Assembly: GCA_036758605.1 (NCBI GenBank)
Contig: DAIOWE010000001.1
Location: 935 to 64,934 of the forward strand
Source of the DNA: Pseudomonadota bacterium
GTDB lineage: Bacteria; Pseudomonadota; Alphaproteobacteria; UBA11222
Length of the DNA stretch: 64,000 bases
Reading direction: 5' to 3'
Under the pieces are notes generated by a model. It worked only from the letters and a program-made list of their open reading frames with translations, was not told the origin of the DNA and did no database searches. A program made the translations under genes and the position numbers. Positions 19,167-50,268 of the stretch are shown piece after piece (the stretch's first letter is position 1; each line of letters starts with the position of its first letter).

Positions 19167-19538
19167 CTAGGTTCTGTCGCCCTTGATGATTTCAGTCATG
19201 GTCACCCCCAGCCTGTCATCAATCACAACAACTTCACCGCGCGCTACAAGACGGTTGTTAACGAAAATATCTATCGCTTCGCCGACCTTGCGATCCAGCT
19301 CAACAATAGTTCCAGGCCCCAGCTTCATAAGCTGGCTGACTTCCAGATATGCTTTTCCAAGAACAGCAGAAACATTCACCGGAATATCGAACACTGCTTC
19401 CAGTTCGTTGGCTGAGCGAGCCCCGCCTTCTTCATTTGTCAGGCTGCCATCGACATTGCCATCTGTGGTAACAGAAGGCAGGCCATGCTGAACTTCATCT
19501 TCGAGATTTTCCCAGTCAATTCCGTTTTCATTACTCAT
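19167..19538 (-). CDS. fliN: Flagellar motor switch protein FliN.
   Basis: C-terminal SpoA domain …LMKLGPGTIVELDRKVGEAIDIFVNNRLVARGEVVVIDDRLGV…. ATGA-coupled to the upstream gene. Confidence 0.85.
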   Translation of the reverse strand: MSNENGIDWENLEDEVQHGLPSVTTDGNVDGSLTNEEGGARSANELEAVFDIPVNVSAVLGKAYLEVSQLMKLGPGTIVELDRKVGEAIDIFVNNRLVARGEVVVIDDRLGVTMTEIIKGDRT

Positions 19539-20248
19539 TTTGTAGAATCCATAAATTTTTGGTTGGCATCAATTTCAGTATTTTTGGGTGTAACAAAATC
19601 CGGTTCCACACCGGCATCAATTGAATCAACCCGGGATACATAGTTGGCAATCACCTGATCGATATGCTCAAGCTGTTCAGGTGAACGGTAGCTGACCCCT
19701 CCATCTGCCCACTCAATTACACATTGCGCGGGTGTCGTGTCAGGGACGCCAATAAGTATGACCCGCCCGGGGTAGCCTGTCGTAATCGTGATGCGATCAA
19801 TTTTTTCTTTTAATATATCAATTAATTTTTCATCAACCTTCAGCACGATGCGGGGCTCTGTATTAAGATTGGACAAACATGATAGAAAAAGCGCTTCGAT
19901 TTCCGCCGTTGGATTTTCCGCTATCAATACCGATGCCAGTTTTTTGGCGATTACCAGCGCCAATTCGGCAGATTGCCTGCGCAGAATTGCAATGTGTCCG
20001 GAAACTTCGGAAATAAGCGTGGAATATTGCGAAAGTAGCGCCGACAGGGTTTCTTCAGCCTGTTTTTCAATTTTAAACAGCGCCGAATCTTTGCCCGCAA
20101 TTACGCCTTCTGCAAAAGCCGCATCCTGGATTTCTTTTATCTGGTTGTCTGTATAGGAACGTTTTTTTTGCGCCGCGAAGCTGTCCCGTAACGTATCGCT
20201 ATTTTGCGTATCCAGATTTTGAAATGTAAATTTCAGGTTTTGTGTCAT
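19535..20248 (-). CDS. fliH: FliH-like flagellar assembly protein (Caulobacter FlbE position).
   Basis: 237 aa between fliG and fliN; the C-terminal …QCVIEWADGGVSYRSPEQLEHI… resembles the FliH C-terminal domain. Confidence 0.55.
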   Translation of the reverse strand: MTQNLKFTFQNLDTQNSDTLRDSFAAQKKRSYTDNQIKEIQDAAFAEGVIAGKDSALFKIEKQAEETLSALLSQYSTLISEVSGHIAILRRQSAELALVIAKKLASVLIAENPTAEIEALFLSCLSNLNTEPRIVLKVDEKLIDILKEKIDRITITTGYPGRVILIGVPDTTPAQCVIEWADGGVSYRSPEQLEHIDQVIANYVSRVDSIDAGVEPDFVTPKNTEIDANQKFMDSTK

Positions 20249-28673: not shown

Positions 28674-30803
28674 ATGTCTGGAATTGGAATTCTTGGTAAT
28701 GCGATTAGTGGCTTGCAAACAAGCCAGACGGCACTTCGCCATACATCTACCAATATCGCAAATGTAAATAATCCGGATTTTGCACGGCGTCAGGTCAATT
28801 TTCAGTCACGCGCATTGGGTGGCGTTGAAATTTCAGATGTAACCCGCATAGCCAATGATTTTTTAACCCGTGAATCTTACAGGGCAACATCAAACGCAGA
28901 AGCGGCGGGAATTATTTCGAAACTCCATGACCGGCTGCAATCAACGCTGGGGGATCCGTCAGCTAACAATTCTATCGCCTCAAAAATTAATGCGATGTTT
29001 GCCGATCTTTCCGAGATGCAGATCGATCCGACATCGAATGTCCGGCGTGGAGCCGGTGTGAATAGCGTACAGGCGTCCCTTGATGAACTGGGAAAACTTG
29101 CAACATCTGTGCAACAAATCAGGGGTGATGCGGATCAGGATATTTTCGGTCGCATCGGAATTGTCAATGACCTGTTAAAAAACATCTATGATTTAAATGT
29201 TCAAATTGTCGCTTCAAACTCATTAAGCAATGACGCAGGCGCCCTGATTGATCAGCGTCAGCAGTCGTTGACGGCGCTATCCAAAATTATAGATATTCGT
29301 ATTTCACCCCAGGCAGACGGACGAACATTTGTTGCGACATCGGATGGTATTTTTATGGTCAGCACCACGCTGACAAAAATGAAATATGAGTCTGGGGCTA
29401 CCGTTACGCCAGACACCATTTTTCCACGTATAACGCTTCATAATACCGACTTTGCCACGGGTGCGGTTAGTCCGGTTGGGCAACCGTTGGAGACGCATAT
29501 TTTATCAGGTGAGCTGCGCGGTCTGCTTGATATGCGGGATGTGACCCTGCCAAAAATTGCAGAAGAGGTTGGAGAGCTGGCCTCAAAACTCGCGGACCAA
29601 TTGAATGCAATTCATAATGATAGCTCGGCAGTGCCGGCGCCCAATCGATTGACGGGTATTAATACGGGACTTCTTGCAGCTGATGCGCATAATTTTTCCG
29701 GCATCAGTAATTTCAGTGTTACGGATGCTACAGGCCTGACTGTCGTCAGTGTCCAGGCTGATTTTACGAATAATCAATACCGGATTAATGGCGGTGCGCC
29801 TGTAGCGTTTGGCGGCGCAACGATTGGGGACGCTGTTGCGGCCATTAATACCGGGCTTGGCGCCAGTGGCAGCCTCACCTTTGTGAACGGCGTAATGACG
29901 CTTTCCGCCACAAACCCTGCCCATGGCGTGGCGATGGTGCAGGATAGCGCATTACCCAGCTCGCGGGCGGGACGTGGCTTTGCGCATTTCTTTGGTCTTA
30001 ATGACCTGGTGAGGGCCGATAAGCCAAGCCATTATCAAACAGGTATCTCGGCTGGCGCCGCTCATGGGTTCACGCTTGGCAGTACGGCGCAGTTCAAATT
30101 CATCGATGCACAGGGACAGATCCCACTGGATTTTACACTCACGGTGGCCGGCGCGACTGTGGGTGATGTGATTACGCAACTCAATACAGGCGTAGCTCCT
30201 TATGGAAGTTTTGCTTTGGATGCCAGTGGTCAACTCGCTTTCACACCTGCACCTGCGTACGAGGGGGGAGCGCTATATTCGGTGAATGATTTAACAAACC
30301 GTGGTGGCACGGGACTTGGTCTTTCACAGATTTTTGGAATTGGGCCTGGTGCACGGCAAAACCAGGCGATGGGTATGGAAGTACGTTCCGATATCTTCTC
30401 GAACAATAACCGGCTTGCACTGGCAAAACTAAATGTAACAGCGCCCGGGACCGCTGCGCTTGGTGTCGCGGATGATCGCGGGGCAATAGCATTTCACGCG
30501 CTGGAAGACAAAATAACAAAATTTGATGCGGCCGGGCATATCACAGGGCTGTCTGCAACCCTGAGCGATTATAGTGGTCAGATTCTGTCAACTGCTGCCA
30601 GACTGGCGGCGCAGGCCAAGGCGATCGGCGATGATCGTAGCGGCATCCGGGACGAAATAAACTCTCAGATCAGCGATATTTCTGGCGTCAATCTTGACGA
30701 AGAACTGGCTAATCTTGTGGTCTATCAGAACGCTTATAATGCGGCTGCCCGCATGATTAAAGCCGCCGAGGAATTGTTCAATGCGCTGCTGGATGCTGTG
30801 TAA
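28674..30803 (+). CDS. flgK: Hook-associated protein 1 FlgK.
   Basis: MSGIGILGNAISGLQTSQTALRHTSTNIANVNNPDFARRQV…; C-terminal …EELANLVVYQNAYNAAARMIKAAEELF…. Confidence 0.9.
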   Translation: MSGIGILGNAISGLQTSQTALRHTSTNIANVNNPDFARRQVNFQSRALGGVEISDVTRIANDFLTRESYRATSNAEAAGIISKLHDRLQSTLGDPSANNSIASKINAMFADLSEMQIDPTSNVRRGAGVNSVQASLDELGKLATSVQQIRGDADQDIFGRIGIVNDLLKNIYDLNVQIVASNSLSNDAGALIDQRQQSLTALSKIIDIRISPQADGRTFVATSDGIFMVSTTLTKMKYESGATVTPDTIFPRITLHNTDFATGAVSPVGQPLETHILSGELRGLLDMRDVTLPKIAEEVGELASKLADQLNAIHNDSSAVPAPNRLTGINTGLLAADAHNFSGISNFSVTDATGLTVVSVQADFTNNQYRINGGAPVAFGGATIGDAVAAINTGLGASGSLTFVNGVMTLSATNPAHGVAMVQDSALPSSRAGRGFAHFFGLNDLVRADKPSHYQTGISAGAAHGFTLGSTAQFKFIDAQGQIPLDFTLTVAGATVGDVITQLNTGVAPYGSFALDASGQLAFTPAPAYEGGALYSVNDLTNRGGTGLGLSQIFGIGPGARQNQAMGMEVRSDIFSNNNRLALAKLNVTAPGTAALGVADDRGAIAFHALEDKITKFDAAGHITGLSATLSDYSGQILSTAARLAAQAKAIGDDRSGIRDEINSQISDISGVNLDEELANLVVYQNAYNAAARMIKAAEELFNALLDAV

Positions 30804-30822
30804 TAGCTGAGGGAATAGTGAT

Positions 30823-31743
30823 ATGACGCGAATTTCAACGCTTTCACAACAGCAGTCCATAGTCAGCCAGATGCTACGCGCACAAAACCTGGTGGCGGAT
30901 GATCAGCGTCAGGTGGCGACCGGGTTCAAAGCTGATCGTTATGACGGGATAGCGCGCGATGCAGCAACTCTTGTTAGCGCCCGGACGGTTGAAAGCCGGA
31001 CTTTACAATTTATTGAACTGGGGCAACAGATCGGCGCGCAGGTCAATTTTCAGGATACCGGATTGACGGCAATGTATGATTCCGCAAAAACATTACGCGA
31101 CAGTATATTGGGGTCATTGGCGACGAATAGTGGCCGTACCGTCTCCATCGATCTGGATAGCGCATTTGTGTCGGGTAAAGCTGTGCTGAATACCCGGTTT
31201 GCAGGCAGGTTTCTTTTTGCCGGATCACGAACAGACGTGCAGCCATTCAATGCCGTGGATCTGGCTGATCTGGCGACGGTTGCATCGCCTATTGCAAGTT
31301 TTTTTGATAACAGCCAGCAAAAGGCTCAGGTGCGCGTTGAACAAAATCTGACCATCGAACACAGTATTCTGGCGGACGAGATGGGTATTAACATGATGGC
31401 CTCTGTCAAGCGGTTGGCGGAATATAATGCAGCGACACCATTTAATCAGGTTTTGACGCCGGCCGACCGCGCGATTCTCCAGGCTGAAGTGACCAATCTG
31501 GATAATGTGCTTTCCGAAATTATCAAATTGCAGACAAACAACGGGTATATCTCAAAACGTATCGAAGCCGTAACGATCCGTAATGAAGCACTGGATAATG
31601 TGAACAAGCAGCTTATTTCCGATTTGTCGGAAGTGGATATGGCGGAGGCCATCTCCAGGTTTAATCAGGATAAGCTGGCGGTGGAGGCCTCCTATAACTT
31701 GCTCCGTCAAATATCCCAGCTCAGTCTGCTGAACTTCCTCTAA
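30823..31743 (+). CDS. flgL: Hook-associated protein 3 FlgL.
   Basis: 306 aa; flagellin-like N- and C-terminal heptads (MTRISTLSQQQSIVSQMLRAQ…, …LLRQISQLSLLNFL). Confidence 0.8.
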   Translation: MTRISTLSQQQSIVSQMLRAQNLVADDQRQVATGFKADRYDGIARDAATLVSARTVESRTLQFIELGQQIGAQVNFQDTGLTAMYDSAKTLRDSILGSLATNSGRTVSIDLDSAFVSGKAVLNTRFAGRFLFAGSRTDVQPFNAVDLADLATVASPIASFFDNSQQKAQVRVEQNLTIEHSILADEMGINMMASVKRLAEYNAATPFNQVLTPADRAILQAEVTNLDNVLSEIIKLQTNNGYISKRIEAVTIRNEALDNVNKQLISDLSEVDMAEAISRFNQDKLAVEASYNLLRQISQLSLLNFL

Positions 31744-31748
31744 AGCAC

Positions 31749-31767
31749 GGCGCTTGCCGTAAGCGCC
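31749..31767 (+). terminator. Possible terminator hairpin after flgL.
   Basis: GGCGCTT-GCCGT-AAGCGCC; weak U-tract. Confidence 0.3.
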
Positions 31768-31788
31768 GGGTGCCTGTATTTAGGCGCG

Positions 31789-32934
31789 ATGTCACATACA
31801 CTGCAATTAACCAATTTGGGCCTGCCGGGCGTACCCGGTGCAACGCGGGTCGTCGTCGCCATGTCGGGGGGCGTCGATTCATCTGTTGCCGCCGCGCTGC
31901 TGCATGAACAGGGCTATGATACGGTTGGCGTCACCCTGCAATTATATGACCATGGCGCTGCGGTTTCGCGCAAGGGCGCCTGCTGTGCAGGACAGGATAT
32001 TTATGACGCTCGCTTTGTAGCTGAAAAAATCGGTATTCCACATTATGTGCTGGATTATGAAAGCCGGTTTCGTCAAACAGTGATGGATGATTTTGCAGAT
32101 AGTTATCTTGCCGGTGAAACACCGGTTCCCTGTGTGACCTGTAACCAGACGGTAAAATTCACCGATTTGCTTCAGGTGGCGCGCGAGCTTGGCGCACAGG
32201 CTCTTGTTACCGGTCATTATGTGCGCCGGATAATGGGCAAGCAGGGGCCAGAACTGCACCGCGCCGTGGATCCTGATCGCGACCAGAGCTATTTTCTGTT
32301 TGCAACCACTGGCGCGCAACTGGACTATTTACGCTTCCCGCTGGGTGATCTGTACAAGGATGAAACCCGCGCCATCGCGGGGCGCCTTGGTTTGGCGGTT
32401 GCGGACAAGCCGGACAGTCAGGATATCTGTTTCGTGCCGCAAGGCGGCTATGCAAGCGTAATCGAAAAACTGCGCCCCGATGCGGTGGGTCCCGGCGACA
32501 TCGTGCATCTCGATGGCCGCGTCCTGGCGCGTCATCAGGGTATCATTCATTATACGGTTGGTCAGCGCCGCGGCCTTGGGGTTGGCGGGGGCGAACCCCT
32601 GTTCGTTGTGCGCCTGGATGCGGGTCGGCGCCAGGTGATTGTCGGGCCGCGCGAAGCATTGCTTCGCCGTCATGTGCGGGTGCGTCAGCTTAACTGGCTT
32701 GGGGATAGTCCGCCTTCTATTGAAGGGCAGGAAGTTGCGGTCAAGGTACGCTCTACACGGCCAGCGGTTCCCGGGGCACTGTTCCCGGACGGTGCAGGTG
32801 GCGCCAACATTACCCTGCACCAACCGGAAGAGGCGGTGGCCCCCGGCCAGGCCTGCGTGATTTATGAGGCGGGCGAAAGCAGCCGTGTGCTTGGTGGCGG
32901 CTGGATCATGCGCGATGTGCAGGCTGCCTCGTAA
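31789..32934 (+). CDS. mnmA: tRNA-specific 2-thiouridylase MnmA.
   Basis: PP-loop [15 protein letters not shown]; …[27 protein letters not shown]…[10 protein letters not shown]…. Confidence 0.9.
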
Positions 32935-33051
32935 AATCCGCTAAAATGGCCATTGCGTCAGATCTAACATGCTGATCCTTGTTTATGCTATGAAAGTTAG
33001 GGGGCAGGATCGGTCGGCAGACGACCCGGCCAGTTGGTTCAGCATTTTTAA

Positions 33052-34143
33052 ATGGTCATTTGGCGCGTGTCTGAAACGGGACAAAATCCGGATTTGAAGC
33101 AAGGCCGCATCACAGCGTTTCTGCGCTGGTGGGGTGCTGAATTGCGAACGCTCGTCCCGCCCCGGCTGGCTGTACTGTCCGGGCTTGCCCGCGAAGTGAT
33201 AGTGCTGGTTCCAGAGGGAAATGATTTTACCGTGCGGCGATGTGTTGGGGGCGCCGCGCAAATGCTAGGACTTTTATCACAGGCCGGAAAGGGTGACCAG
33301 GTGGCGCGCTATCGCGCAACAGGCGCCGAATGTGTTCTGCGCATTCCATCGGCGCAGGGGTTACGGCGGCAGGCGCCCATAGCGGTTTCTGCATTGCCAC
33401 GGGGCTATGATGCCGTTGCAGGTGAAATTGAACGGCAAACCCCATTTGCGCCAGATCAGGTCTATCTGGGCTATCACGTAGAAGATACGATTGATCCTCG
33501 TGGCAGGGTGATGGCGCATCTGGCGCTGGTTCCATGCGCCAGCACGGATATGGTGCTGCAAACATTGTCCAGATCAGGGATTGTTCCGGATCGGATTACA
33601 CTGGCCGATGATGCGAACGAAAATTCAGCTGGCGATACCGTTCACATTCTTAGGCCACTGCGCAAAGAACCAGCGCCTAAAATTTTGCTGGCGGTTGTAT
33701 CCATCTTGTTGCTGGTTTCACTGGTATCGCCTTTCTGGCGAAATTCAGTGGCGTTATCAGATGTTGAAAAGGCACTTGCTCAAGCGCGGCAGGCCGCATT
33801 GCCGGACAATCCAGGGAATGGGGCAGGGGATGCGCAATCACAGATGACCTATCTGGTGGAATTGCGTGGCCAGAGACCGCCTGTTACAGCATTGTTGAAT
33901 GCAATCAGCACCGCACTTCCCGATACGGCGCATCTGGCGCAGTTTGAACTTTCCGGCCGCACCCTTGCATTACAGGGCGTAGCCCATGCGGCGCCAGACT
34001 TGATTGCGCCACTGGAGGCGCTCGATCAGGTGGCAAAGGTGGAATTCACTGCGCCCACTTTGCGTGACCCGGTGCAGGGGCTGGAGCAATTTCAGTTGAC
34101 CATTCAGTTGCGCGCAGCATCAGTGGCGGAGCAGACAGAATGA
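33052..34143 (+). CDS. GspL-like inner-membrane platform protein (cytoplasmic domain, one TM, periplasmic domain).
   Basis: 363 aa; single TM (ILLAVVSILLLVSLVSPFW) about two thirds of the way in; GspL/PilM-N-like architecture. ATGA-coupled to the next gene. Confidence 0.45.
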   Translation: MVIWRVSETGQNPDLKQGRITAFLRWWGAELRTLVPPRLAVLSGLAREVIVLVPEGNDFTVRRCVGGAAQMLGLLSQAGKGDQVARYRATGAECVLRIPSAQGLRRQAPIAVSALPRGYDAVAGEIERQTPFAPDQVYLGYHVEDTIDPRGRVMAHLALVPCASTDMVLQTLSRSGIVPDRITLADDANENSAGDTVHILRPLRKEPAPKILLAVVSILLLVSLVSPFWRNSVALSDVEKALAQARQAALPDNPGNGAGDAQSQMTYLVELRGQRPPVTALLNAISTALPDTAHLAQFELSGRTLALQGVAHAAPDLIAPLEALDQVAKVEFTAPTLRDPVQGLEQFQLTIQLRAASVAEQTE

Positions 34144-34694
34144 GCGCGCTTGAAAATATGCGCGGGCGCGCAGTGGCGTTATTGTTATTATTGGGCGCAA
34201 TCATGCTGGTATGGTTTGGCGCGGCGCATCCTTATCTGGAAGCGCTTTCCAATACCAGGCACAGGCTGGAGGCGGCCTCGGCGCAATTGCAAATTTATCA
34301 GCGCGCCGTTGCGCGCGGAAAAGTGGCCCATGCCGGAAAAAATGATGCGCTGGATGCATTGTTGCTGCCAGGGGAAAGCGCCGCCGCCGCCGCTGCTTAT
34401 TTGCAGCAACGCATGGGCGAGATAGCGGCGGACAGCGGGGCATTGTTATTAAGCTTCGAATTATTGCCGGTGACAAATACTGATGACGCACCATTGAAAG
34501 CCGCCATGGGCCGTATCCGGGTTACGGCGAATACACAGTCCCTGCGCGCACTTTTGCATGCAGTGGAAAGTCACCGGCCGCTGCTATTGCTGGATAATCT
34601 CTTTGTACGGGCGCGCAGCGATCAGGATAGTGTGCCGGGCGGTCATCTGGACGTGCAGATGGATGTTTCGGGCTTTCGTCGGGCAGCAGAATGA
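34140..34694 (+). CDS. GspM/PilO-like bitopic membrane protein.
   Basis: 184 aa; N-terminal TM (AVALLLLLGAIMLVWFGAA) then a periplasmic domain; by position and size corresponds to GspM. ATGA-coupled. Confidence 0.4.
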   Translation: MSALENMRGRAVALLLLLGAIMLVWFGAAHPYLEALSNTRHRLEAASAQLQIYQRAVARGKVAHAGKNDALDALLLPGESAAAAAAYLQQRMGEIAADSGALLLSFELLPVTNTDDAPLKAAMGRIRVTANTQSLRALLHAVESHRPLLLLDNLFVRARSDQDSVPGGHLDVQMDVSGFRRAAE

Positions 34695-35164
34695 TCATGC
34701 GCAAGATTTTGCTGACGGCGGGCGCCGTGTTGACCGGGATCGCAATTATACCCTGGTTGCGCGATCCCATGGTCACAGACAGCGGGCCGGGGATAGCCAT
34801 AAATGCGCCGCAGGCCCCGTCAGATTTCAATGATCCGGGGCCGCTTGAGAAATATGACGAAATCGTCCAGCGTCCGGTTTTTGTGGCCACCCGGCGTCCG
34901 GTTGCGGCCCCGGCCTTGAATCCTGGCCATACAGGCGAGGTCATGCTGCTGGGCATTTATCCGGTGGTAGGGGTGGTGATTGCGGGGCAACAGCGCCTGG
35001 TCTTGATCCGCAAGGCCGCGGGTGACACAGTGAGCCGGATAGCGCAGGGGGCAGAACTGGACGGCTGGACTTTAACAGAAGTGTCGCGCGCGCGGCTGGT
35101 CCTGGAAAAGGCCGGAAACCGCAAGGAAGTATCCCTGCAGAATAATGGCGGTAGTGCAGATTGA
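34691..35164 (+). CDS. GspC/PilP-like secretin-interacting protein.
   Basis: 157 aa; N-terminal TM then a beta-rich segment …EVMLLGIYPVVGVVIAGQQRLVLIRKAAGDTVSRIAQGAELDGWTLTEVSRARLVLEK… resembling the HR/PilP domain. Confidence 0.4.
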   Translation: MIMRKILLTAGAVLTGIAIIPWLRDPMVTDSGPGIAINAPQAPSDFNDPGPLEKYDEIVQRPVFVATRRPVAAPALNPGHTGEVMLLGIYPVVGVVIAGQQRLVLIRKAAGDTVSRIAQGAELDGWTLTEVSRARLVLEKAGNRKEVSLQNNGGSAD

Positions 35165-37401
35165 ACAGGCTCATGAGTATTTTTAAGCGGCGGCATCTAT
35201 CAGGGCCTGATGATTTTAGGTTGATCCCTTGCCCTTCCCGTATCGCTGTCATTACCCGGCTTGTCCGCGCAATGACAATGCAGGGGGATTCAATCCAATA
35301 TCATCCCACTCTAAATGCAGCATTTCTATTTTTAGCGATGTTTGTTGCGCTGGCCGGTTGTGCGGATCAGCGCCAGCGTTTGGCTGTACCCGTGCCCCAG
35401 CCCCCGGTTGCGAAAGCTCCCCAGAATCCATCCCCTGTATCGGCCGCTGCGACACCCTTGAACGCTCCGGCAAAGCCCATTGAGGAATATTATCCCGCAC
35501 CCGGCGGTTCAGCGCCCGATGCTACGCCGCGCACGGCCACGGCTGCGGGGGATATCAGCCTGAATTTTCAGAACGCCAGCATTGCGGAAATTGCGGGCGT
35601 CATCCTGGGCGACCTGCTGAGGGTTCCATTCACCATTGATGCAGGCGTACAGGGGAGTGCGTCGCTGAATACCGGCATGCCGGTTAACCGCGACGCGCTG
35701 ATTCCGGTGCTGGAAGCGATCCTGTCCAGCATGAATGCCGTGTTGATCAATCAGGGCGAGGTATATCGTATCAAATCCGCCATCGGCATGGATTTACCGG
35801 GCGCGCCGGTGGGCGCTGGATTGCCGTCTGGTACGGGTGCGGGTTTCGAAGTGTTTGCACTGTCTTATATTGGCGCCGCTGAGATGGCGAAGCTAATCGC
35901 GCCGCTAGTGCCCGAAGGCCGCCCGGTAAATGTCGATGCACAGCGCAATCTGCTGATCGTCGGCGGCACTGGGCCGGAACGTCAGTCGGTGCGTGAAACC
36001 ATTGCTCTGTTTGATGTGAACGCCATGGCCGATCAGTCGGTGTTGCTGATCAGCCTTGAGCATGTCGATGTCCGAACCATTTTGTTTGAGTTGGAGAATA
36101 TTTTCGGCGATACCGGAAAGGGACCGCTTGCGGGCCTTGTGCGCTTTGTACCGGTCGAGCGATTGAACGCGCTGATGGTGCTGTCTTCACAGCAGAACTA
36201 TTTAAGTCAGGCGCGCGACTGGATCCGGCGGCTGGACCGTACGCGCCGCGCCGATGAACAGACGGTGTTTGTGTATTTCATGCAGCATGGCTCCGCTCCC
36301 GATATGGTGAAAACCCTACAGGAAATTTTTACCAGCGCATCGGGCGCGCGCGAAACGGCGCCGGATGCAACCCAAACCGGTACAGATGTGGAGATTGCAT
36401 TGCCAATCCCATCGGGAAATTCTGCGGGCATTGCCCCGCCCCCCCTGCGCATCACGGCGGACCGGTCCAAAAACGCACTGCTGATTCAGGGCAATGAACG
36501 CCAGTATCAGCAGGTCAAGGACGTACTGGGAAAACTGGACATCGCCCCGCTGCAAGTGATGATTGAGGCGCAAATCGTAGAGGTCAGCCTGGGCGACACC
36601 CTACGCTATGGGGTGCAATATTTCCTGGATACGGGCGGACTGAAAATTGATGAAGACAGCATCACCCAACTGACATCGGGCGCGTCGGCCACAGGCATTG
36701 CGCCAAACCTGTCATCGCCACCGGGCGGCGGCTTTGCGTTTTCGCTATCGGGCAGGGCAGGGCAGAACCGGGTCGTGCTGGATGCGCTGTCGGATTTAAC
36801 CAGCGTCAACATGATTTCCGCGCCGACACTTTTCGTGCTGGACAATCAGGTCGCGCGGTTGCGTGTCGGCGATGAAGTTCCGATCATCACACAAACTGCC
36901 GACGGGCTGACAAATGATTCCCGTACGCTGAATACGGTGCAATATCGCAGTACCGGCGTATTGCTGGAAGTAACCCCGCAGGTAAATTCCGGCGGCATGG
37001 TAACCCTGCAAATCGTGCAGGAAGTCAGCGCGGCGGTAAACACCCAAAGCTCGGGCAGCTCTACCATCAATTCTCCCACCATTCAGCAGCGCAGCTTCCT
37101 TAGCACTGTGGGCGTGCGCGATGGCGAAACCATTCTGCTGGGCGGCCTGATCCGTGAACAGGCCTCAAAAGGCCGCAGTGGCATCCCCATCCTGCATCAG
37201 GTGCCGGTGCTGGGCAATCTGTTCGGGCGCACCAATAATTCGGCGCAACGCACCGAGCTGCTGGTGATGATTACCCCGCGCGTTGTGCGTGACACACAGC
37301 AAAACCGTGATGTCACCATGACCATCCGCGAAAAATATCAGGGGATATTGTTGCTCCAGGAAAAAGGCGCGGAACGTCCTCGAAGAGTGTATGGGGAATA
37401 A
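35161..37401 (+). CDS. Secretin (GspD/PilQ family), probably a lipoprotein. Start uncertain: TTG 35161 coupled to the upstream stop, or ATG 35173 / 35272.
   Basis: Lipobox …FLAMFVALAGC… near the N-terminus; N0/N1-like domains (…ISLNFQNASIAEIAGVILGDLLRVPFTID…); C-terminal secretin domain (…VLLEVTPQVNSGGMVTLQIVQEVS…ILLGGLIREQ…IPILHQVPVLGNLF…LLVMITPRVV). Confidence 0.85.
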   Translation: MNRLMSIFKRRHLSGPDDFRLIPCPSRIAVITRLVRAMTMQGDSIQYHPTLNAAFLFLAMFVALAGCADQRQRLAVPVPQPPVAKAPQNPSPVSAAATPLNAPAKPIEEYYPAPGGSAPDATPRTATAAGDISLNFQNASIAEIAGVILGDLLRVPFTIDAGVQGSASLNTGMPVNRDALIPVLEAILSSMNAVLINQGEVYRIKSAIGMDLPGAPVGAGLPSGTGAGFEVFALSYIGAAEMAKLIAPLVPEGRPVNVDAQRNLLIVGGTGPERQSVRETIALFDVNAMADQSVLLISLEHVDVRTILFELENIFGDTGKGPLAGLVRFVPVERLNALMVLSSQQNYLSQARDWIRRLDRTRRADEQTVFVYFMQHGSAPDMVKTLQEIFTSASGARETAPDATQTGTDVEIALPIPSGNSAGIAPPPLRITADRSKNALLIQGNERQYQQVKDVLGKLDIAPLQVMIEAQIVEVSLGDTLRYGVQYFLDTGGLKIDEDSITQLTSGASATGIAPNLSSPPGGGFAFSLSGRAGQNRVVLDALSDLTSVNMISAPTLFVLDNQVARLRVGDEVPIITQTADGLTNDSRTLNTVQYRSTGVLLEVTPQVNSGGMVTLQIVQEVSAAVNTQSSGSSTINSPTIQQRSFLSTVGVRDGETILLGGLIREQASKGRSGIPILHQVPVLGNLFGRTNNSAQRTELLVMITPRVVRDTQQNRDVTMTIREKYQGILLLQEKGAERPRRVYGE

Positions 37402-37408
37402 AGGCGGC

Positions 37409-38698
37409 TTATTTTGCCGTCAGCGTGGTATTGATCTGATACTTGCCATTTCCGCCACAGCAGTGCTGGACGGAAAGCAGATAGGTACCCGGATTAACCG
37501 GTGTGTTAAGCCCGAAATTATAGCCCGCGCCACCATCGTCATTACTTGCCACCGGGTTGCCGCGACTATCCATCAGACGGGCGGTGACATCGCTGGACCC
37601 GCGCGAATTCACGGCAAGCATTCCCGGTTCAGATACGCGCAGTGAAAACATATCGACATCGTTGGCTGCGCTAATTTGTCCTTCGAGGCTGGCGCGTGTT
37701 GCGCCCGCCTGTAACAGTGTCATTGCGGTTCTGGCAGTTGCACCATAATCATCGGGTTCCGCCCCTGTCGCACCGGCGCGGCCAGCACCCACGGCTATGT
37801 CGAAACTGGCAACCGGCCTTAGCGCATCACCGCTGCGGTATAAATATAGTTTTGCGAAACCTTCCGGCGTGGTTTCAGAAAAAACGGTGCTGGCCTGCAA
37901 ACGTCCGCCTTCCGTTTTGAGTATGTTGATCGTACTGCCGGGTGGCCCCGCCAGAATGGCGTCGGCGCCAGCGCGCGCGATTTCGGGACCGGAAAGCGTA
38001 ATCACAGTGCGCTGATTTCGCAGGACGCGCGCCACGGGGTAGGGGGGCGCAAGCATGCCGGGACTGCTCAGGGCCGCAGCCAGTTGTGGCAGCCATGCGG
38101 CTGCGGATGCCGGCAGGCCGCTATCTGTTCTGGCAATGTCTTGCAGCGCCCCCCCCATGGCGGCGCCAAGCGAGCGGGACAATGTTCCGGCCATGCCTTC
38201 GCGCGCCGCAAACAAACCGTTTTTTGTGCGCTGTAACAACAGTGCTCGGGTTCCCGTCTGGCCGCCCAGTGACCGGTACAGGTTGAACAAACGCCGCGCG
38301 GATTCTGCCAATGCCTGATCCGTGGCGGAAAGTGTGCTTTTATCCGCCGCACTTACCGCGCCATCGGGTGTAATACGCAATAACGGGCCTTCGCCGCTCA
38401 GGGCATCGGGGGCAATGCGATTTGCATCGGCGAATAATTGTGAGAGGTTGGCCAGATATTCCGGGTTGCTATCCGCTTCTATGCTCAATGTGGATTGGGC
38501 GTGGGCGGGGGAGGCGAGGATGATGAAAGCGGTTAGTAAGATAAGAGAAATTTTTACTAACGTAAATTTTTTCGCAGCCCCCCACCCCAACCCCTCCCCA
38601 CGAGGGGGAGGGGCTTTGCCACCGAGTGCGGAGTTTCTTCTCCCCCCCCCTCGTGGGGAGGGCCGGGGTGGGGGGCGCAGTATGAGAAAATTCTTCAT
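37409..38698 (-). CDS. Secreted protein with a C-terminal PPC (pre-peptidase C-terminal) domain. Its N-terminal region contains an in-frame GC-rich palindromic element.
   Basis: The ATG at 38698 overlaps the GNAT stop as ATGA. Hydrophobic signal-like segment LVKISLILLTAFIILASPAHA. C-terminal …NDVDMFSLRVSEPGMLAVNSRGSSDVTARLMDSRGNPVASNDDGGAGYNFGL…PGTYLLSV… fits the PPC pattern. Confidence 0.6.
   Translation of the reverse strand: MKNFLILRPPPRPSPRGGGRRNSALGGKAPPPRGEGLGWGAAKKFTLVKISLILLTAFIILASPAHAQSTLSIEADSNPEYLANLSQLFADANRIAPDALSGEGPLLRITPDGAVSAADKSTLSATDQALAESARRLFNLYRSLGGQTGTRALLLQRTKNGLFAAREGMAGTLSRSLGAAMGGALQDIARTDSGLPASAAAWLPQLAAALSSPGMLAPPYPVARVLRNQRTVITLSGPEIARAGADAILAGPPGSTINILKTEGGRLQASTVFSETTPEGFAKLYLYRSGDALRPVASFDIAVGAGRAGATGAEPDDYGATARTAMTLLQAGATRASLEGQISAANDVDMFSLRVSEPGMLAVNSRGSSDVTARLMDSRGNPVASNDDGGAGYNFGLNTPVNPGTYLLSVQHCCGGNGKYQINTTLTAK
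38576..38675. repeat. 100-bp GC-rich imperfect palindromic element (REP/MITE-like) inside the 5' coding region of the PPC gene.
   Basis: Arm 1 CCCCCCCACCCCAACCCCTCCCCACGAGGGGGAGGGG, a 28-nt spacer, and arm 2 as its near-perfect reverse complement. Each arm itself holds a CCCCTCCCC/GGGGAGGGG hairpin. It reads as Pro/Gly/Arg-rich peptide without stops in the gene frame. Confidence 0.65.
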
Positions 38699-49704: not shown

Positions 49705-50268
49705 TTACATATTGTGCTCCTTATAGGCGGCTGCACGTGCGGCATCCCCTTCGACCGCAACTTCATAAAGCGGTTTCAGCATGGTGGCGATATCGATTTG
49801 CCCCTGTTCAACGGATTGTTGCAGCGCCCAGATTAATTTATCGCTCAGACGGCGCGTATATTCTGGTTCATCTGTATTAATGCCGCCACCGAGGGGTGGG
49901 TGGTTGTTGCCATGCAAGCGAATATCGTCTGCCACCTGTTGTTCTGCCTTGCGCGCCTCTACGGCTATAACGCCTATTACCGCGGCAAGTTGCGGCAGGT
50001 CCAGTTCCAGCGCCTGCTCGATGGCCCATATCAGCTTGTCGGAAAGGCGGCGGGTGTAGCGGATGGTATCTCCTCTTTCGAGTATGATTTTGCGTACTGT
50101 CAGCCATTTTTTATAGCCTGCAAGATCATTTGCGGTGACAGCATCGGACAGCGACAGCGCGGCGACATTCTGGGCGGATGGTCCGTGTTTGGCGATAAGC
50201 GAATCGGCTATTTCTGATGCTTCCTGTGCAATGGCCACGCTTTGCGGCATTTCTTTTCTCCCGGGCAT
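49705..50268 (-). CDS. Hypothetical cytoplasmic protein (187 aa) with an internally duplicated YTRRLSDKLIWA(I/L)(E/Q)Q motif.
   Basis: Two copies of …YTRRLSDKLIWAIEQALE… / …YTRRLSDKLIWALQQSVE…; no family assigned. Confidence 0.4.
   Translation of the reverse strand: MPGRKEMPQSVAIAQEASEIADSLIAKHGPSAQNVAALSLSDAVTANDLAGYKKWLTVRKIILERGDTIRYTRRLSDKLIWAIEQALELDLPQLAAVIGVIAVEARKAEQQVADDIRLHGNNHPPLGGGINTDEPEYTRRLSDKLIWALQQSVEQGQIDIATMLKPLYEVAVEGDAARAAAYKEHNM

Follow-up and report, generated by a model that had tools for sequence, protein, structure and literature searches.

The described gene cluster closest to the one examined here is the xps cluster of Xanthomonas and other Lysobacterales, in which the genes for a type II secretion system (T2SS) are arranged in the order xpsE-F-G-H-I-J-K-L-M-N(C)-D. 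XpsN of this system is a GspC and the gene for GspO lies outside of the xps cluster (PMC11981180); the prepilin peptidase gene is usually encoded elsewhere (PMC11981180, PMC6617341). T2SSs that are encoded by several loci are already known, and in the functional Lsp system of Legionella pneumophila the genes are dispersed over five loci (lspC; lspDE; lspFGHIJK; lspLM; pilD), with L and M apart from the pseudopilin genes (PMC6617341). The Hxc genes of Pseudomonas aeruginosa form a single cluster and the T2SS secretin HxcQ is described, in a passage of PMC3542185 citing Viarre 2009, as a self-piloted lipoprotein that needs no pilotin. Lastly, the PilMNOPQ proteins of type IVa pili are homologous to the components considered below (GspL resembling a PilM-PilN fusion, GspM PilO, the GspC HR domain PilP and GspD PilQ), and they are likewise encoded apart from the ATPase and pilin genes of their system.

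In the 64-kb stretch of DNA analyzed in this work (hereafter, the window), four genes on the forward strand follow each other in the order L-M-C-D. These are an XpsL-type gspL (positions 33052–34143; 363 aa), an XpsM-type gspM (34140–34694; 184 aa), a probable minimal gspC of the type formerly referred to as XpsN (34691–35164; 157 aa) and the gene for a lipoprotein secretin, gspD (35161–37401; 746 aa when counted from a TTG codon, which gives the longest ORF). The junctions gspL/gspM and gspM/gspC are both ATGA overlaps and the gspC/gspD junction reads TTGA, of which the TTG is an uncertain start for the secretin. The genes flgK, flgL, and mnmA are found upstream of gspL, and a gene of convergent orientation is located downstream of gspD. 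The initial annotation of this DNA had reported the four overlapping same-strand genes and these flanks (flgL/mnmA and the convergent gene), all of which we confirm, and the likeness it saw between the L-M-C-D order and Xanthomonas-type xps clusters is borne out by the identical gene order, the homology of the first protein to XpsL and the assignment of the second as an XpsM equivalog. It had also noted the absence from the window of genes for the ATPase, platform, prepilin peptidase, and pseudopilins. Consistent with this, no GspE, GspF, GspO or pseudopilin was found by Pfam among the plausible genes of ORFs of at least 150 aa in the 64-kb window, and tblastn searches of the window with the E-K proteins of this clade returned nothing better than E = 0.1.

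Two of the four proteins were identified by curated profiles. GspM, for which the initial annotation had proposed a GspM-like identity to be examined by profile search, scored 121.2 bits against the NCBIfam model NF040576 (T2SS_GspM_XpsM; cut-off 60) and 66 bits against Pfam T2SSM_b. GspD contains the Pfam domains N0, three Secretin_N and Secretin, and it scored 423.5 bits against TIGR02517 (type_II_gspD; cut-off 351.35), whereas its scores were below the cut-offs for the other secretin models, viz. PilQ (TIGR02515; 160.5 versus 284.35), MshL (TIGR02519; 147.6 versus 250.2) and SctC. For the first protein, the sole match to a sequence family in Pfam and NCBIfam was to PilN and was limited to C-terminal residues 281–353. 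However, this protein is 25–30% identical to XpsL proteins from Lysobacterales (Luteimonas, Thermomonas, and Lysobacter), whose genes lie within E-F-G-H-I-J-K-L-M-N-D clusters. A search of the PDB with its family profile matched only PilN from Myxococcus (E 5e-4) and a similar search with the third protein gave nothing meaningful; as these profile-only searches were uninformative, structure prediction followed by Foldseek was needed for both. The best matches of the AlphaFold model of the first protein (pLDDT 76) were cytoplasmic GspL domains (4pht_X, 1yf5, and 5tkw; E 4e-7 to 1e-6), and it also aligned with the periplasmic domains of PulL and EpsL (5hl8 and 2w7v; TMt 0.64–0.69). The layout comprises a cytoplasmic actin-like domain (residues ~45–200), a single TM helix (~210–235) and a periplasmic PilN/GspL ferredoxin-like domain (~281–353). 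Based upon this model the protein is a GspL with a predicted GspE-binding cytoplasmic domain, in agreement with the bitopic GspL-like protein of the initial annotation.

The third protein, whose position between M and D is retained in all of the relatives, matched no Pfam family. Its match to the NCBIfam model for XpsN was weak and far under the cut-off (3.4e-5; residues 19–151 aligned with profile positions 35–158 of 260), and weak matches to NCBIfam GspC models were also observed. The top PDB match for its AlphaFold model (pLDDT 71) was the HR domain of GspC from a GspC-GspD complex (3oss_C; probability 1.00, TMt 0.67, rmsd 2.4, with a Foldseek E of only 0.03), and LspC (7oio), PilP (2y4y) and the PulC HR domain (6hcg_e) were among the other top matches. 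The protein consists of an N-terminal TM helix, a linker and an HR beta-domain (~85–148), and the second periplasmic (2P/PDZ) domain is absent. Judged from the modeled fold, it is probably a minimal GspC without this domain.

Three metagenome-assembled genomes (MAGs) that contain a flgL-mnmA-L-M-C-D locus of the type seen in the window carry gspE-F-G-H-I-J-K on another contig. These are Betzabe_MAG060 (L-M-C-D on JBMOMW010000020.1, L014; E-K on JBMOMW010000052.1, L119), Betzabe_MAG061 (JBMOMX010000012.1, L019, and JBMOMX010000031.1, L103) and Baikal-deep-G66 (SHWM01000006.1, L017, and SHWM01000015.1, L095). Because an E-K operon is present elsewhere in each of these genomes, the reading of the L-M-C-D genes as a new stand-alone channel is not supported. 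The most probable interpretation, to which we assign a probability of about 0.88, is that they form the distal half of a two-locus Xps-type T2SS from an uncultured freshwater alphaproteobacterium, with the E-K half, in which gspE codes for the ATPase, gspF for the platform, gspG for the major pseudopilin and gspH-I-J-K for the minor ones, at a second chromosomal locus. Of the possibilities that the initial annotation had raised, that of a split T2SS is thus upheld by the separate E-K contigs, in contrast to those of a type IV pilus and a stand-alone assembly; it had further envisaged a complete operon contiguous just outside the window, and the partner genes are instead found at a distant locus.

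The L014 locus of Betzabe_MAG060 shows 95–97% nucleotide identity to the window, its GspL being 98% identical, and based upon these values this MAG appears to be of the same or a sister species. Within its E-K locus, GspG passes the GspG cut-off; the best families for the other genes are GspE, GspF, XpsH, XpsI, GspJ, and GspK, all with scores below the NCBIfam equivalog cut-offs, for which reason these six components are considered divergent. The E-K locus is flanked by a gene for cytochrome c554 on one side and by sugar-nucleotide genes on the other, and the tetranucleotide compositions of the two T2SS loci agree (r 0.95–0.97). A clade-specific family of 359-aa GspF proteins (P0032–P0050) is encoded at loci that have E-F-G-H-I-J-K but none of L, M, C, and D. 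No gene for the prepilin peptidase GspO/PilD was found in the window or adjoining either T2SS locus.

The E-K partner was found in the sister or conspecific MAG and in two others and its presence in the window's own assembly is inferred from these; the co-occurrence of two contigs in a MAG is subject to the caveat that binning can misplace contigs. In JGI sample 3300006014, which has a contig 100% identical, one metagenome scan with exact peptide patterns yielded no match for E-K. The GspF variants P0041, P0045, and P0155 belong to the same projects but were obtained from different samples, none from 3300006014, ERZ27235085 or SRR2238xxxx, and a metagenome scan with P0177 gave 5 loci, none of them from Ga0073919. 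As the sample accessions provided no tie between E-K and the window's strain, the link is based upon Betzabe_MAG060 and its 95–97% nucleotide identity.

In comparison to Xps, both the L-M-C-D and the partner E-K genes are in the same order, GspO is not part of the cluster in either system, the best weak matches of the third protein, H and I are to XpsN, XpsH, and XpsI, and a lipobox cysteine is present near the N-terminus of the secretin, as it is in XpsD of Luteimonas. The system described here differs from Xps in being split between K and L into two distant loci, in its GspC of 157 aa (versus ~260 aa) that is without the 2P region, in its GspF of 359 aa, in which ~60 N-terminal positions are missing, and in being present in an alphaproteobacterium, with most components below the equivalog cut-offs. 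It shares with Lsp the separation of L-M from the pseudopilin genes, but the breakpoints are different, as there are only two core loci here and L-M has not been parted from C and D, and the types of secretin and GspC also differ.

The relatives present a series of arrangements, from a contiguous E-to-D cluster, through G-to-D, to E-to-K plus L-to-D. In Betzabe_MAG062 (L020) the genes E-F-G-H-I-J-K-L-M-C-D are contiguous, with L and D being 57 and 70% identical to those in the window; in three loci (L013, L022, and L023) G-H-I-J-K-L-M-C-D precede the PPC/GNAT/M16/thrC genes that are also found after gspD in the window; and the isolated L-M-C-D arrangement is kept in at least seven species-level MAGs. 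The ancestor presumably had a contiguous E-to-D cluster, which a rearrangement between gspK and gspL would have split. This fission series could be of use for work on the origin of multi-locus secretion systems. By analogy with established T2SSs, the GspE hexamer would be anchored by the cytoplasmic domain of GspL, GspL would pair with GspM in the periplasm, the HR domain of GspC would dock on the N0 domain of GspD, thereby linking the inner-membrane platform to the secretin, lipidated GspD would be delivered to the outer membrane by Lol and need no pilotin, and the G-K pseudopilus would drive folded periplasmic proteins out through GspD.

It could also be proposed that the split is functional and not accidental, with L-M-C-D being co-transcribed with late flagellar genes, so that assembly of the T2SS is coupled to the motile phase, and with the minimal GspC and a PPC-like protein forming a narrow dedicated route for substrates. 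The L-M-C-D genes are co-directional with flgK-flgL-mnmA and, in at least seven species, follow mnmA at a distance of only 23–117 nt, which makes such co-transcription possible. A scan of positions 32800–37600 for promoters and terminators was uninformative, as sites were no commoner than in shuffled sequence and the gap between mnmA and gspL contained none. The proximity to the flagellar locus, to which the initial annotation had drawn attention, is conserved among relatives, and conserved synteny is the extent of it. The PPC-like protein is the 429-aa product of the convergent gene (37409–38698, reverse strand), which has a weak C-terminal PPC/FDP-like domain; its matches to Pfam PPC (E 0.0039) and to NCBIfam FDP_fam (25.4 bits versus 29) are both below the cut-offs. 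The PPC-domain exoprotein gene that had been annotated beside the module is upheld as a conserved adjoining gene, the same convergent neighbor of gspD being present in L013, L014, L015, L017, L018, L022, and L023, whereas the PPC assignment itself is sub-threshold. By inference only, this protein is a candidate substrate of the T2SS. Overall, we regard a functional origin of the split as unlikely.

The start of gspD is of importance for a further possibility, viz. that L-M-C-D has been unused since its separation from E-K and is being lost, the leader of the window's secretin having already been disrupted. The candidate starts for this gene are TTG 35161, ATG 35173 and ATG 35272/35278. The orthologues favor TTG 35161, which is not a secure start, or the ATG four codons on. 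On identical metagenome contigs, gene callers place the start at ~35338, which would leave a signal peptide that is too short. Relative to the orthologues, ~108 nt (35203–35310, forward strand) have been inserted in frame into the leader in a lineage-specific manner, separating the ancestral n-region from the hydrophobic core. This insertion is absent from L015–L020 and is 57 nt longer (165 nt) in L014. It contains the inverted repeat TGTCATT...AATGACA, and no further copies, as might be expected of a mobile element, were found in the window or the fetched loci. With this insertion the n-region of the signal peptide would be very long or uncharged, and export of the window's secretin is therefore not assured. 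However, the insertion is in frame in both the window and L014, with the lipobox and mature protein conserved, and all four ORFs are unbroken in every relative examined. The dN/dS values between the window and L014 are 0.09–0.24 across the four genes, comparable to that for the housekeeping gene mnmA (0.10), and these genes, as estimated from this sequence comparison, evolve under purifying selection. Decay of the module thus seems very improbable. The 746-aa protein also accords with the secretin of 700+ aa with a lipobox that had initially been annotated: the lipobox is LAGC (Cys codon at 35359), and its cysteine, which follows a hydrophobic stretch, is conserved in nine orthologues and in Luteimonas XpsD. 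No pilotin gene was found next to gspD. On the basis of the conserved lipobox, GspD may be lipidated and self-piloting, as is HxcQ.

An even smaller likelihood is attached to the proposal that L, M, C, and D by themselves make up an outer-membrane channel, serving for export of polymer or slime or as an uptake pore without ATPase, platform, and pseudopilus. The lack of partner genes in the window, the conservation of the isolated arrangement and a passage in PMC12475490 implicating secretins in slime secretion could be cited in its favor. Against it, the module co-occurs in three MAGs with an E-K operon that has no L, M, C, or D of its own, both halves are contiguous in Betzabe_MAG062, the L and F families of the clade are similar in size and divergence (~28 versus 19 clusters), and GspL, as modeled, retains its cytoplasmic domain, which is known to serve for the binding of GspE. 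Least credible of all is the reading in which the four proteins serve a type IV pilus as its alignment and secretin sub-complex, in the manner of PilMNOPQ or MshIJKL, for although Pfam and PDB profile searches relate the first protein only to PilN, the fold of the third is also PilP-like and T4aP systems are typically multi-locus (PMC6668835), the secretin is above the GspD cut-off and far under those for PilQ and MshL, the second protein is an XpsM equivalog, GspL and GspC-HR folds rank ahead of PilM and PilP, and the partner locus encodes a GspG above its cut-off together with H-I-J-K pseudopilins in T2SS order. Both the type IV pilus/MSHA and the stand-alone readings were rejected based upon the curated score cut-offs and the partner locus.

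An apparently orphan secretin module from a little-known freshwater lineage of alphaproteobacteria is thus most probably half of a conventional T2SS, which has little significance beyond annotation. For these genomes, automated system finders need a multi-locus T2SS model. The PPC-like protein has been named as a candidate substrate, and the 157-aa protein, which public records label 'hypothetical', is given a probable role as GspC.

The four genes described in the initial annotation were all found as open reading frames on the forward strand, namely gene 1 (33052-34143, 363 aa), gene 2 (34140-34694, 184 aa), gene 3 (34691-35164, 157 aa) and gene 4 (35161-37401, 746 aa counted from TTG), and the noted overlaps were read at their junctions as ATGA (L/M), ATGA (M/C) and TTGA (C/D). 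Based upon a Pfam search of plausible genes among the window ORFs of at least 150 aa, this is a chromosome segment of alphaproteobacterial appearance containing chemotaxis (che) genes and a large flagellar cluster (fliI, flhF, flhA, a sigma-54 activator, motA, fliG, fliF, flgE, flgD, fliK, flgK, and flgL), beyond which lie mnmA and gspL-M-C-D. After gspD there follow a convergent gene for a 429-aa protein, GNAT, M16 peptidase, thrC and M32 peptidase genes, further on SURF1 and the cox operon, and in the remainder tldD, DUF1329 and others, with suf genes at the end. Two minus-strand ORFs were without matches: one of 237 aa between motA and fliG (19535-20248; Pfam) and one of 187 aa between the cox operon and tldD (49705-50268; Pfam and NCBIfam).

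Gene 2 scored 121 bits against NF040576 (cut-off 60), also matched Pfam T2SSM_b, and is by its curated family assigned as an XpsM-type GspM. Gene 4 is likewise identified by profile as a GspD secretin, with 423.5 bits against TIGR02517 (cut-off 351) and PilQ, MshL, and SctC scores far under their cut-offs. For gene 1, a PilN domain was the sole match by sequence. In a PDB fold search with its AlphaFold model (pLDDT 76), the best four matches were the cytoplasmic domains of GspL/EpsL/PulL (E 4e-7 to 1e-6), with PilM and FtsA ranking behind them, and for the modelled C-terminal domain the matches were to the PulL and EpsL periplasmic domains (TMt 0.64-0.69). Gene 3, whose family is labelled "hypothetical protein" in NCBI and JGI records, showed weak sequence matches to XpsN/GspC; XpsN is now classed as a GspC (PMC11981180). 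The top PDB match of its predicted six-stranded beta-domain was the GspC HR domain of a GspC-GspD complex (3oss_C; prob 1.00, TMt 0.67, rmsd 2.4 Å), the other best matches being LspC, PilP, and the PulC HR domain. Because the protein stops 9 residues past this domain, the GspC homologue (34691-35164) is predicted to be just an HR domain joined by a linker to a TM helix, the second periplasmic (2P) region (PDZ, coiled-coil or helix) being absent.

The absence from the window of ATPase, platform, prepilin peptidase and pseudopilin genes, also noted initially, was confirmed: the Pfam search of the same ORFs detected no GspE, GspF, GspO or pseudopilin gene, and tblastn of the clade's own E-K proteins (GspE, GspF and pseudopilins GspG-K) against the window gave no match better than E = 0.1. 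A partner locus was sought with the GspF of L020, a relative locus from Betzabe_MAG062, as query, which retrieved a clade-specific short GspF family (~359 aa) at 99-55% identity, the next matches falling to 43% or less. In all contexts examined for this family, a cytochrome c554 gene (minus strand) is followed by gspE (MshEN and T2SSE domains), gspF, gspG, gspH, gspI, gspJ, and gspK (249 aa), and then by sugar-nucleotide genes; L, M, C, and D were absent from every one of them. Both loci are present, on separate contigs, in three MAGs, viz. Baikal-deep-G66 (L-M-C-D on SHWM01000006.1, L017; E-K on SHWM01000015.1, L095), Betzabe_MAG061 (JBMOMX010000012.1, L019; JBMOMX010000031.1, L103) and Betzabe_MAG060 (JBMOMW010000020.1, L014; JBMOMW010000052.1, L119); the partner locus was seen in MAGs and not in the window's own assembly. 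A binning error is possible, yet three independent MAGs agree. The tetranucleotide composition of the two loci is alike (r 0.95-0.97). In Betzabe_MAG060, no less than 68 kb of a 161-kb contig lies on each side of L-M-C-D and no less than 15 kb of a 72-kb contig on each side of E-K, and from these distances we infer that the two are separated by at least about 80 kb. The best NCBIfam families of L119 are GspE, GspF, GspG, XpsH, XpsI, GspJ, and GspK, with GspG over its cut-off. In L119 8328-11080, GspE has an N-terminal domain of the MshEN type, a fold known as a c-di-GMP receptor, and GspF (359 aa) is short of about 60 profile positions at its N-terminus and has no PF28597 domain, which other GspF proteins carry. 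No prepilin peptidase gene was found in the window or beside either T2SS locus.

That L-M-C-D is a decaying remnant is unlikely, as the selection data speak against it. The four ORFs are intact in all relatives seen, and the dN/dS values between the window and L014 (L 0.24, M 0.10, C 0.09, mature D 0.09; mnmA 0.10) indicate purifying selection rather than decay. Of the readings initially offered, the split T2SS is upheld by the E-K genes on another contig in three MAGs, whereas a T4P system and a stand-alone outer-membrane channel are both rejected on the curated cut-offs and the partner locus. In Legionella pneumophila the Lsp T2SS is encoded by five loci, with lspLM apart from lspFGHIJK (PMC6617341), and it shares with the window system the spread of T2SS genes over several loci; comparative work on type IV filament systems models multi-locus organisation explicitly (PMC6668835). 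Since multi-locus T2SS are already documented, the window T2SS is a divergent addition to a known kind. Its particular break between K and L, its GspC of 157 aa with HR only and its shortened GspF are minor variants.

The L homologues fall into 31 clusters and make up a narrow family. The window L protein is present unchanged in several metagenome contigs, and JGI 3300006014 Ga0073919_1000004 matches window 23052-44143 at 100% identity. In one genome-collection scan, the closest genome was Betzabe_MAG060 (95-97% nt identity, L protein 98% identical, gene context unchanged), and the order flgL-mnmA-L-M-C-D was also observed in six more alphaproteobacterial MAGs. L020 (L 57%, D 70% identical) carries a full E-F-G-H-I-J-K-L-M-C-D in one stretch. 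In three further loci (L013, L022, and L023; L 38-40% identical), G-H-I-J-K is immediately upstream of L-M-C-D, with PPC-like, GNAT, M16 and thrC genes downstream as in the window. The XpsL proteins of Luteimonas, Thermomonas, and Lysobacter (25-30% identical) sit in canonical E-F-G-H-I-J-K-L-M-N-D clusters. Rearrangement of this system is common. Other T2SS gene orders occur in more distant XpsL-like loci of a gammaproteobacterial MAG (L024; G-H-D-E-F…J-K-L-C), an alphaproteobacterial MAG (L025; L…C-D, E-F-G-H being encoded on the other strand) and Mesorhizobium sp. 1M-11 (L077; yet another order).

The gspD lipobox (LAGC in the window, Cys codon 35359) is conserved in every orthologue as well as in Luteimonas XpsD, and this motif fits a self-piloted lipoprotein secretin like HxcQ (PMC3542185). 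The leader contains an in-frame insertion of ~108 nt (35203-35310), which separates the ancestral start (TTG 35161 or ATG 35173) and n-region (MSIFKRRH) from the hydrophobic core and lipobox. It holds an inverted repeat (TGTCATT...AATGACA), is missing from orthologues of other species, and in L014, from the conspecific or sister MAG Betzabe_MAG060, is 57 nt longer by an inverted duplicate; no second copy was found in the window or the retrieved loci. The start chosen by gene callers gives too short a signal peptide. The true gspD start is uncertain, and with it the C/D TTGA coupling in the window species.

Based upon established T2SS knowledge (PMC11981180), GspL would bind the GspE hexamer produced from the second locus and pair with GspM, GspC would use its HR domain to connect this platform of L and M with the GspD N0 ring, and the G-K pseudopilus would push folded substrates out via the secretin; lipidated GspD would rely on Lol for targeting and need no pilotin. 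Co-transcription of gspL-M-C-D with the late flagellar genes is possible. The gap between mnmA and gspL is just 23-117 nt in at least seven species, and no terminator-like site was found in it by a promoter/terminator scan, in which sites overall were no more numerous than in shuffled sequence. From flgK and flgL through mnmA to gspD (28674-37401), all genes run in one direction.

The convergent 429-aa protein (37409-38698, minus strand) has a proline/arginine/glycine-rich N-terminal extension, then a signal-peptide-like segment (…LILLTAFIILASPAHA), and a weak C-terminal PPC/FDP-like domain. It is a reasonable candidate for a T2SS substrate. Its gene adjoins gspD convergently in seven loci, down to 38% L identity, and the protein changes faster than its neighbours (88% vs 95-99% amino-acid identity).
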